Source: a virus (Duplodnaviria; Caudoviricetes). From it: a DNA stretch of 64,000 nt. The notes under the pieces were generated by a model. It did not search any database and was not told the DNA's origin. It saw only the letters and a program-made list of their open reading frames with translations. Shown piece by piece: positions 10,431-62,156 of the stretch; position 1 is the stretch's first letter, and every line of letters starts with the position of its first letter. The position numbers and the translations under genes were made by a program. The stretch spans positions 13,678-77,677 of IMG/VR virus record IMGVR_UViG_3300037722_000240. One strand, given 5' to 3'.

Positions 10431-11194
10431 TATACTTTTGCCTCAATGCTGTCTACTGCGCTACGAATTTGTTCTAACTCAGATACAACGTCAATATCAG
10501 ATGGAGGTTGTGGAGGAGACGGAGTTACAAATAAATTAAAGTACCATTCCTGCATTCTATCCATGTCAATATCATAGCTACTTACTCCATGAGCATGGCC
10601 TTTTCTATTTCCATCAGCTTCCCATTGCCAATTTATGAATTGGTCCTCAGCAGGTATAGCAATACCTCCAGAGGTCTTTTCCCAACCAATAGGTACATAT
10701 ACAGGCATAAGTTCATTGGTGTAATTAGCTACAAATAAATCCCAGTCATGTATCCAACCAGGTTTTATACTATAGAAGTCCTGCCATACAAACTTGGCTG
10801 TATAGATGGCCGGCATACGTACGCCTGTCCACCAAGACTTCAATAGATATAGAAATTTTAGAACTTCTCCTAGGGCTTGACTCTTAGTAACACTATGTTT
10901 ATGCTCTACGTCTAATACTGGTGGAAAGGTCAAGTCTGGTGGTTGAATTCCTTCAATCATCTTAGAAAACTGTTTTTCTACATTGTATCCAGCATAAAAA
11001 TAATGATAAATTCCAAAAGGGAGTCCTTCTGTCTTAGCGCCGTCAAAATTGTCCCAAAATCTTAGGTCACTATAGTATCCAATACTTTTTCTACAATAGA
11101 CAAACTCTGAACCAGCACTTCTCATGGTTTTGAAATTAACGTCCCCCTGATGAGCACTTATATCGTTTCCATTTATCCAATTCACTATACACAC
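10430..11194 (-). CDS. GH25 family endolysin (muramidase)
   Basis: DISAHQG, GIYHYF, PPVLDVE, IYT, WQW...DIDMD motifs. Confidence 0.9.
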   Translation of the reverse strand: MCIVNWINGNDISAHQGDVNFKTMRSAGSEFVYCRKSIGYYSDLRFWDNFDGAKTEGLPFGIYHYFYAGYNVEKQFSKMIEGIQPPDLTFPPVLDVEHKHSVTKSQALGEVLKFLYLLKSWWTGVRMPAIYTAKFVWQDFYSIKPGWIHDWDLFVANYTNELMPVYVPIGWEKTSGGIAIPAEDQFINWQWEADGNRKGHAHGVSSYDIDMDRMQEWYFNLFVTPSPPQPPSDIDVVSELEQIRSAVDSIEAKV

Positions 11195-60789: not shown

Positions 60790-61104
60790 GGGAGCGCAAG
60801 GGTTCGACAGGAGATTAGTAGTATAAAGTTGCAAGAAACTTTAAAATAAACGCAAAAGATTTTATTACATCTCTAGTTACCAAAATTACTGGAGCCTTCG
60901 CACCCGTTCCTCAGTTGGCGTTTGCGTAAGGTCAGTTAGACTGAAACTCACTCTTGACTCCGCTGGAGAGTTGTAGTATAATGCGGATAGCTTGTAAAAG
61001 GGTTTGTCACCTTTCCCTAACAAGGCGAAAATAAAAGGTGACTACTCTTGTAGACGCTTTATATGAAACTCTTTTGGACGCGGTTTCGATTACCGCCGCT
61101 TCCA
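60790..61104 (+). ncRNA. ssrA: tmRNA; tag reading frame 60852-60929 encodes AKDFITSLVTKITGAFAPVPQLAFA
   Basis: acceptor GGGAGCG/CGCTTCC with G3.U70 and A73; 5' TTCGAC; 3' GGACGCGG-TTCGATT; H2 pairing; ATAAAC-GCA resume context. Confidence 0.92.
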
Positions 61105-61122
61105 CCTTGAACGGAGGAGTTT

Positions 61123-61323: not shown

Positions 61324-61539
61324 ATGAGAGACGAAGCTAGAATTAAAAGAATAGTCAATATCCTATACAGAGTGTGGGAATTATATCCTGATTTAAGGAT
61401 AGGACAGCTTTTATCTATAGCCGCTACTTATGGGGATAAGAAGTTTAGTAAGGATGTATTTCCTATTGAAGATGATATTATGGAAAGCGGTCTAAAGATG
61501 ATGCTAAAGAAGTACTACGAGAATAAAACGTCTGCTTGA
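61324..61539 (+). CDS. hypothetical protein; last 10 nt lie inside tRNA-Cys
   Basis: AGGAGG RBS; MRDEARIKRI...W..YPDLRIGQL motif. Confidence 0.75.
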   Translation: MRDEARIKRIVNILYRVWELYPDLRIGQLLSIAATYGDKKFSKDVFPIEDDIMESGLKMMLKKYYENKTSA

Positions 61540-61601
61540 CCGAGAGGCAAGGTTAACACCTGCAAAGTGTTAGTACACTGGTTCGAATCCAGTAGCAGAC
61601 T
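61530..61601 (+). tRNA. tRNA-Cys(GCA)
   Basis: GTCTGCT/AGCAGAC; CT GCA AA; U73. Confidence 0.9.
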
Positions 61602-61603
61602 CC

Positions 61604-61967
61604 TTTAGCCTCGACTCTGCGCTATACAAAGGAAAAGAAATGTTACTAGAGTTTAAATGGGACATTGCGTATGACGATATAGGAATCGCTTTAGTTGTTG
61701 ATTACAACTGGAATTATCAGCGATTTGTACTTATGGCCCATTTTTTGTTTTGGGGATTAGACTTTAGAATTTACTTTGTATAGAGGAAAGTCGGCCCTAC
61801 GTTGCTTAAGGTAGGAGGCGAAAGCCAATTGCACTACCGAGGTAGCAATCCTAAATGTCTTAGCAGGTGAGCAATGCTATAATGGACTGGTTGGAGCCGC
61901 CGAAAGGCCAGCATATATGCTGAGAAAGATGCAGAGATAGAACAGAAGGCCGCTTATGGAGGTTAAA
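61604..61967 (+). ncRNA. rnpB: RNase P RNA with minimal S-domain and ORF-containing P3 insertion
   Basis: P1 TTTAGCCTC/GAGGTTAAA; P2 CTCTGC/GCAGAG; P3 CTATACAAAG/CTTTGTATAG; CR-I GAGGAAAGTC; P4 AAG(T)CGGCC/GGCCGCTT; CR-IV AGAAAGAT; CR-V ACAGAA....GCTTA. Confidence 0.88.
61640..61783 (+). CDS. 47-aa ORF nested in the P3 loop of the RNase P RNA
   Basis: AAGGA RBS; MLLEFKWDIAYDDIGIALVVDYNWNYQRFVLMAHFLFWGLDFRIYFV; TAG at 61781-61783. Confidence 0.55.
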   Translation: MLLEFKWDIAYDDIGIALVVDYNWNYQRFVLMAHFLFWGLDFRIYFV

Positions 61968-62156
61968 ATGGATAAGGTTAAATTTTTTAAGATAGAACAT
62001 AGGGACGGCGATGAATATATATTTTATTGTCCAAAATGTAGTAACAAAGTATCAACAGTTTCTTGGAAAAATATAGCAGAATGTTATAATTGTAATACTG
62101 CATACAAAGTACGGGTTGAGCATTTAATGTTTGTAGAACCCTTAGAAAAGGTTTAA
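61968..62156 (+). CDS. small Zn-ribbon protein
   Basis: CPKC...CYNC; its GGAGG RBS is the P1 3' strand of the RNase P RNA. Confidence 0.7.
   Translation: MDKVKFFKIEHRDGDEYIFYCPKCSNKVSTVSWKNIAECYNCNTAYKVRVEHLMFVEPLEKV

Follow-up and report, generated by a model that had tools for sequence, protein, structure and literature searches.

RNase P RNA is a classic trans-acting ribozyme that trims pre-tRNA by removing its 5' leader, and its gene is treated by textbooks as purely non-coding. The specificity domain of the RNA (P7-P14) reads the T-loop of the tRNA. Protein genes do lie within other structured RNAs. In group I and group II introns with ORFs (e.g., the T4 td intron), a protein gene occupies a peripheral loop of the ribozyme, which folds around it, so that translation and folding can interfere. 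The intervening sequences of rRNA genes are additional segments, some of them with an ORF, that sit at the helix tip of a stable RNA gene between complementary arms that rebuild the helix. Likewise, tmRNA, RNAIII/hld, and SgrS/SgrT each unite a structural or catalytic job and a short ORF in one RNA. The locus described here has all of these features in common with the systems named, and its closest counterparts by analogy are the ORF-bearing group I/II introns and the rRNA-gene intervening sequences.

The sequence evidence supports the identification of positions 61604-61967 of a 64,000-nucleotide stretch of phage DNA (hereafter, the window) as a phage-encoded RNase P RNA that derives from the bacterial class A type and is without the specificity domain. 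The RNA is 364 nt long, of which ~222 nt are ribozyme and 142 nt lie inside the P3 helix. The reading that we favor, with a rough probability of 65%, is that this is a phage ribozyme whose P3 has expanded to a 10-bp stem around a conserved 47-codon gene (ORF47), such that one transcript would be both the ribozyme and the ORF47 messenger. In contrast to group I/II introns, RNase P has many substrates, on which it acts in trans, and is not removed by splicing, while ORF47 encodes neither a homing endonuclease nor a maturase and its surrounding sequence gives no sign of mobility. Unlike rRNA intervening sequences, the insert has arms of only 10 bp, is single-copy in the record, carries an ORF without a nuclease domain, and belongs to an element that is vertically inherited with conserved synteny. 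Compared with tmRNA, RNAIII/hld, and SgrS/SgrT, the non-coding job would here be RNase P catalysis, and the ends of ORF47 are built into a helix of the catalytic domain. The original prediction was aware of no description of the arrangement. Literature searches turned up no description of a phage RNase P RNA and none of an ORF inside an RNase P RNA, and the coding-insert variant of the phage RNase P RNA is new.

The window covers bases 13678-77677 of a 77.7-kb IMG/VR virus record, an uncultured phage judged 87% complete, and near-identical copies of this phage are present in many sediment and soil metagenomes. ARAGORN and Rfam place 12 tRNA genes and a tmRNA in the last 5 kb of the window, and the RNase P locus is situated between tRNA-Cys and tRNA-Ser in this array. 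The features of the locus are as follows.

61530-61603, plus strand: tRNA-Cys(GCA), found by ARAGORN and the Rfam tRNA model; its 3' end touches P1 with zero spacer
61604-61612, plus strand: P1 5' strand, pairing with 61959-61967 (9 bp including one G-U)
61615-61620, plus strand: P2 5' strand CTCTGC, pairing with GCAGAG at 61931-61936 (6 bp) and followed by the GC joiner of the family
61622-61631, plus strand: P3 5' strand, a perfect 10 bp with 61774-61783
61632-61773, plus strand: insert inside P3, 142 nt
61640-61783, plus strand: ORF47, 47 codons and TAG, nested in P3
61774-61783, plus strand: P3 3' strand, pairing with 61622-61631
61783-61792, plus strand: CR-I, GAGGAAAGTC, read from the sequence
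61783-61967, plus strand: ribozyme core without specificity domain, by nhmmer and Rfam RNaseP_arch
61788-61796, plus strand: P4 5' strand AAG-U-CGGCC, bulged U at 61791
61844-61848, plus strand: AGCAA (J5/15-like), in the core
61889-61891, plus strand: GGU of the P15 region, in the core
61923-61931, plus strand: AGAAAGATG, ending where the P2 3' strand starts
61942-61947, plus strand: ACAGAA (motif ACAGAA...GCTTA), CR-V element
61948-61955, plus strand: P4 3' strand, GGCCGCTT, 8 bp with the P4 5' strand
61958-61962, plus strand: GGAGG, Shine-Dalgarno sequence of the next gene, 5 nt before its ATG at 61968
61968-62156, plus strand: zinc-ribbon-like gene, 62 aa, the next gene after the P1 3' strand

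P1, P2, and P3 follow one another in 5' to 3' order and close the catalytic domain, with P3 (162 nt in total) interrupted by the 142-nt insert. CR-I and CR-V are joined by the P4 pseudoknot helix with its bulged U (61783-61796 paired with 61942-61955). The core further contains a P5-like helix, and only ~45 nt separate the P5-like strands: the specificity domain is absent, and a small hairpin cluster replaces P7-P14. The insert has a GC content of 33%, as opposed to 49% in the ribozyme core, and its composition is coding-like. The start of the RNA is set at 61604 because the P1-GA-P2-GC word at 61604-61621 is a perfect complement of the 3' strands of P1 and P2, is found only here, and leads directly into the P3 5' strand; the P1-NN-P2 word of the 5' side has a single mismatch-free occurrence in the 64-kb window. 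Like the class A RNase P RNAs of bacteria (E. coli M1 RNA/rnpB; RF00010), the phage RNA has the P1-P2-P3-P4 wiring, CR-I, ACAGAA/CR-V, the bulged U of P4, the AGAUxAAUG joiner before the P2 3' strand, and GGU in the P15 region. It differs from them in being without the specificity domain (P7-P14) and P18, which leaves the ribozyme at ~222 nt, in its 142-nt coding insert in P3, in abutting a tRNA, and in scoring below the Rfam cut-off.

Searches with existing models bore out the RNase P assignment only in part. Scanned against Rfam at gathering score, the window gave no RNase P match, and RF00010 and RF00011 found nothing in the whole record. A focused Rfam search returned RNaseP_arch at 61763-61968 with 23 bits (E 8e-5; cut-off 84), an alignment that covers CR-I, AGCAA, CR-IV, and CR-V, with a P1 and P2 that are makeshift and poor. 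Judged by the refuting outcome that the original prediction had named, the lack of any Rfam hit, this is a marginal result and not a clean one. Relatives were more informative. IMG/VR was scanned for CR-I, a spacer, and CR-V, which yielded 67 loci (some duplicated) on large phage contigs and mostly within tRNA clusters; several of these have long stretches of core sequence in common with the window. An nhmmer profile was built from 19 insert-less phage relatives, leaving out the ORF-bearing ones, and it matches the window at 61776-61961 (E 4.8e-22, 72.8 bits) and nowhere else in it. RF00010, the bacterial class A model, in turn aligns full-length to the insert-less relatives at 50-136 bits: L106 scores 136 bits (above the cut-off of 100), L111 85 bits, L108 66 bits, L081 61 bits, and L105 50 bits. 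The RNase P identity of the window RNA therefore follows from two steps, as RF00010 matches the insert-less relatives and their profile matches the window.

The secondary structure is upheld across the family. In 20 of 22 members all 8 positions of P4 are complementary, across at least 10 different sequences of the helix, and P2 also covaries. The 5' arm of the relatives amounts to ~45 nt and consists of P1, GA, P2 (6-7 nt), GC, a short P3 hairpin, and GAGGAAAG. Relative to RF00010, the family is without P7-P14 and P18, and the alignment of L081 skips ~140 model positions in the specificity-domain region. Helices and motifs P1, P2, P3, P4, CR-I, CR-IV, and CR-V, which the original prediction had named, were all found exactly where it had put them. 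Coincidence is an inadequate account of them, given the unique P1-P2 word in 64 kb, the profile E-value, and the covariation of the helices among relatives. One further family member, L137, the single match among genome contigs, is a 635-bp fragment in a Flavobacteriales MAG bin that contains a tRNA, a miniature RNase P RNA with a short P3, and a tRNA. It probably represents phage DNA that was binned with a bacterium and is unreliable as host evidence.

P3 is a permissive site in this family of miniature phage RNase P RNAs. The insert-less members have the core sequence family, the tRNA-cluster location, and the loss of the specificity domain in common with the window RNA; in about 60 family loci, however, the P3 hairpin measures ~8-27 nt, as compared with 162-193 nt in the ORF-bearing clade with its conserved ORF. 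That P3 was the point of insertion, as had been proposed at the outset, is borne out by the RF00010 alignment of L081, in which the P3 hairpin falls exactly where the window has its insert. Only one other relative has a comparably long P3: L143 (12314-12666, plus strand) carries an independent, unrelated, GC-richer expansion of ~150 nt with no ORF of more than 28 codons and no Rfam match. Three relatives are circularly permuted, namely L083 (7812-8013, plus strand), L125 (693-893, minus strand), and L142 (minus strand, ~10960-11160 in plus-strand coordinates). In these, P2 forms a hairpin that follows the P4 3' strand, a loop takes the place of P1, and the 5' and 3' ends of the RNA pair to form P3.

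The RNA folding of the insert was evaluated with and without the P3 stem. Together with the stem, the inserts of three ORF-bearing lineages fold end to end (z -4.0, -2.75, and -2.4), while the inner insert without the stem has z-scores of -2.3, -0.9, and -0.4. A conserved rod-like RNA within the inner insert was considered and rejected, since the lineages do not agree in showing extra stability once the stem is left out; what is conserved as structure is accordingly the 10-bp clamp. Among the alternatives to the favored reading, one accepts the ribozyme and holds that the insert is cut out or nicked in the manner of rRNA intervening sequences, for example by RNase III at the P3 stem. The active enzyme would then be an RNase P RNA in two pieces that P1, P2, and P3 keep joined, with ORF47 translated only from the precursor or from the excised piece. 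The permuted relatives L083, L125, and L142, whose ends lie in the P3 loop, indicate that a chain break in P3 is compatible with the fold, and the end-to-end folding of each insert with its stem also speaks for this reading. Nevertheless, the closing stem has only 10 bp, the stem-less insert is not consistently more stable than its shuffles, and no processing motif or tRNA-like element was found in the insert. We consider excision or nicking to be unlikely, though it is the main rival of the favored reading. At the level of DNA, contigs of four sequencing runs contained no insert-less allele and no joint across the insert.

ORF47 overlaps the helix that encloses it. Its Shine-Dalgarno sequence AAGGA (61629-61633) starts within the P3 5' strand and runs past its end, and its TAG stop codon (61781-61783) lies in the P3 3' strand, the G of the stop codon being the first G of CR-I. 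When 1.84 billion representative proteins were searched exhaustively with HMMER, only two other relatives of ORF47 emerged, P0002 with 51% identity (47 aa, E 6.5e-8) and P0003 with 40% identity (57 aa, E 1.6e-4). The three were still the only ones after a profile search of 5.8 billion protein clusters. The contigs that bear the homologues (L117/L136 and L118/L119) have the same nested layout and synteny as the window. In all of them, tRNA-Cys is followed by P1, P2, GC, a 10-bp P3 with a 5' strand ending in AAGGA, and the ORF; next come TAG fused to GAGGAAA, the ribozyme core, and a methyltransferase gene directly after the P1 3' strand. In L117 and L118, too, the gene immediately upstream of the ribozyme is this tRNA-Cys. 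A metagenome search with a pattern for the junction of the ORF end and CR-I returned only the same phage.

Several signatures point to a protein-coding role of ORF47. In the three lineages, whose ORFs have 53-61% nucleotide identity, the ATG and an AAGGA keep the same place, and the ORF47 frame has 0 stops in all three while the five other frames have 1-9 stops each. Of the nucleotides that are invariant in all three, 17 fall at first, 26 at second, and 12 at third codon positions (permutation p 0.014). Twelve residues are invariant, and 9 of them are encoded by differing synonymous codons, including Arg by CGA and AGA. When unconstrained substitution was simulated at the observed divergence, the frame remained open in 3.8% and 2.6% of trials, a joint chance of ~1 in 1000 if the two lineages are independent. 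The 10 extra codons of L118 are in frame. Neighboring proteins have 65-69% (methyltransferase) and 56% (71-aa protein) identity, such that ORF47 is only slightly more diverged. Part of the conservation is a constraint on the RNA, as the last codons of the ORF are conserved at the nucleotide level and double as a P3 strand. The original prediction had named covariation and dN/dS as ways to probe the insert. Covariation of the helices and the coding pattern were found, but dN/dS (0.27-0.58) is not strongly below 1 and, with dS saturated, adds little, and the near-identical cluster members and population copies gave no usable dN/dS. Taken together, this evidence, which comes from only three independent lineages, makes selection on ORF47 for its coding function likely. 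The 47-codon ORF in P3, with its ribosome-binding site overlapping the 5' strand and its stop in the 3' strand, stands as first described.

A second alternative also accepts the ribozyme and takes the ORF to be untranslated, the insert being a non-coding expansion of P3 in which the open frame and the peptide similarity reflect common ancestry and RNA constraints. Precedent comes from L143, with its expansion of similar length and no ORF above 28 codons; in addition, ORF47 occurs in only three lineages, and its AlphaFold model, a single helix, is of low confidence (pLDDT 67). Such an expansion would, however, have to keep the same single frame open, and the others closed, in three lineages at 53-61% nucleotide identity; in the unconstrained simulation, the ORF47 frame stays open in only ~3-4% of trials per lineage. 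It would also have to produce codon-period conservation, synonymous codons at invariant residues, and constant positions of ATG and AAGGA, and it is therefore regarded as distinctly unlikely. Aromatic and aliphatic residues abound in the peptide, whose net charge is not consistent; Pfam and PHROG contained no match to it, and its look-alikes in the ESM Atlas are only unnamed small viral proteins.

How a ribozyme and a messenger could coexist in one RNA may be considered from the geometry of the locus. Because the ribozyme lies directly against tRNA-Cys and has the Shine-Dalgarno sequence of the next gene in its P1 3' strand, it is probably part of a polycistronic transcript, and the dual role of this transcript as ribozyme and ORF47 messenger is probable. 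Part of the ORF47 ribosome-binding site is in the P3 5' strand and the stop is in the 3' strand, so a ribosome would have to open P3. The 30S subunit would need the top of P3 to be open, and a terminating ribosome would cover CR-I and the P4 5' strand. With P3 opened and CR-I and P4 covered, translation and the catalytic fold would be mutually exclusive on any one molecule, and competition between translation and ribozyme folding is plausible on these grounds. Sequestration of the ribosome-binding site is not uniform in the clade, as the AAGGA is modest and L118 has a second copy outside the stem. Our best guess is a kinetic partition, in which ORF47 would be translated while the transcript is nascent or unfolded. 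With the 3' half completed and the ribosomes gone, P3, P4, and P1 would close irreversibly to give the active ribozyme, with P3 as a long side arm. The closed ribozyme would also mask the ribosome-binding sites of both ORF47 and the next gene.

A more elaborate possibility is that the arrangement is a switch, whereby translation of ORF47 would unfold P3, CR-I, and P4 and so tune RNase P activity, or that the peptide is a cofactor made in cis for its own ribozyme. Either form is speculative and seems to us improbable. Were the switch to operate, vigorous translation would mean less active phage RNase P and stalled translation more, and the maturation of phage tRNAs and tmRNA would be coupled to the state of the translation apparatus.

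On the favored reading, that of an active ribozyme enclosing a translated gene, the locus is a natural RNase P RNA of half the usual size, encoded by a virus and enclosing a conserved protein gene. It would show that a large coding insert in P3 can be accommodated by the catalytic domain, and it would offer a compact system (a ~222-nt ribozyme and a 47-codon ORF) for work on the sharing of one RNA by translation and ribozyme folding. It would also add to the evidence that large phages carry their own tRNA-maturation machinery. Standard annotation misses such genes, since the RNA escapes Rfam and gene callers report nothing more than a hypothetical protein. PF00825 (RnpA) was sought in the 77.7-kb record and not found; in the absence of an RnpA gene from the record, the protein subunit of the host is probably used.

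The insert is common to all three ORF-bearing lineages and hence predates their divergence, which allows the history of the helices after the insertion to be followed. Among the three lineages, GGCC/GGCC of P4 has changed to CUGA/UCAG and CCGA/UCGG, and AAG/CUU to AAC/GUU. In P2, L117 and L118 differ from the window at two and three pairs, respectively, all of which are still standard (G-C to A-U once, the others involving G-U). P1 covaries in both, with C-G changed to U-A. P3 differs from that of L118 by three pairs changed on both sides and one changed on one side (to G-U), and from that of L117 by one pair changed on both sides and one on one side. Within the population, the variant 61624 A>G turns an A-U pair of P3 into G-U, by which pairing is kept. 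These compensatory changes in P1-P4 indicate continued selection on the fold. They weigh against the view that the insertion killed the ribozyme and left an ordinary small gene amid its remains. The Rfam score of the window, far below the cut-off, speaks for that view, yet CR-I, ACAGAA, and the bulged U are all intact after the insertion, and a dead ribozyme is very improbable. Least credible is a ribozyme that begins at 61763 without P3, with the strands at 61604-61621 coincidental, as in the cmscan alignment of 61763-61968 to RNaseP_arch with an alternative P1 and P2; several pairs in this alignment are non-standard, and a 5' end at 61763 was rejected because the stretch 61604-61620 complements the 3' strands of P1 and P2 perfectly, has no second copy in the window, fits the P1-GA-P2-GC layout of the family, and covaries in L117 and L118.

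Other attempts to find the locus elsewhere gave no additional relatives. BLAST of the locus against 50,697 GenBank phages produced no match, the RNA motif was present in 0 of 80 loci retrieved with the neighboring methyltransferase, no relatives were retrieved via the 66-aa neighbor protein, and a first, strict version of a DNA pattern for the RNA had 0 matches.

The borders of the ribozyme are tightly joined to the adjacent genes. As the 3' end of tRNA-Cys touches P1 without a spacer, tRNA processing must set both the 3' end of the mRNA and the 5' end of the ribozyme. On the other side, the proposal that the P1 3' strand doubles as the GGAGG of the next gene proved correct, in that GGAGG at 61958-61962 overlaps the 5' end of the strand at 61959-61967. 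Some records start the zinc-ribbon-like gene at the ATG at 61956, which makes it 66 aa long. In L118, the ATG of the methyltransferase likewise lies directly after the P1 3' strand: the gene as called there (L118:1061-1825, 254 aa) begins inside the ribozyme, but the methyltransferase of the window aligns from residue 44, and the true start is thus probably the ATG at L118:1185, after the P1 3' strand.

Some further observations concern the surroundings and the core. The 71-aa gene upstream (61324-61539) has its stop codon (61537-61539) inside tRNA-Cys. The tmRNA is found at 60790-61107 of the window (Rfam, 119 bits), and ARAGORN assigns it a 25-residue tag that ends in LAFA and not in the usual ALAA. 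Other contigs of the window phage run past the end of the record into a 487-aa gene with DUF2828 and DUF7788 domains; this gene, at L129:5828-6144, ~470 nt past the last base of the window, adjoins the tRNA/tmRNA/RNase P block. Within the ribozyme core, a hairpin of the P15 region (61855-61885 in the window) has a nearly invariant loop, GGUGAGCA, on a stem that covaries, as seen at the aligned positions of L081, L082, L089-L091, L117, L118, and L120. The GGUGAGCA loop may be a tertiary-contact motif that compensates for the lost domains.
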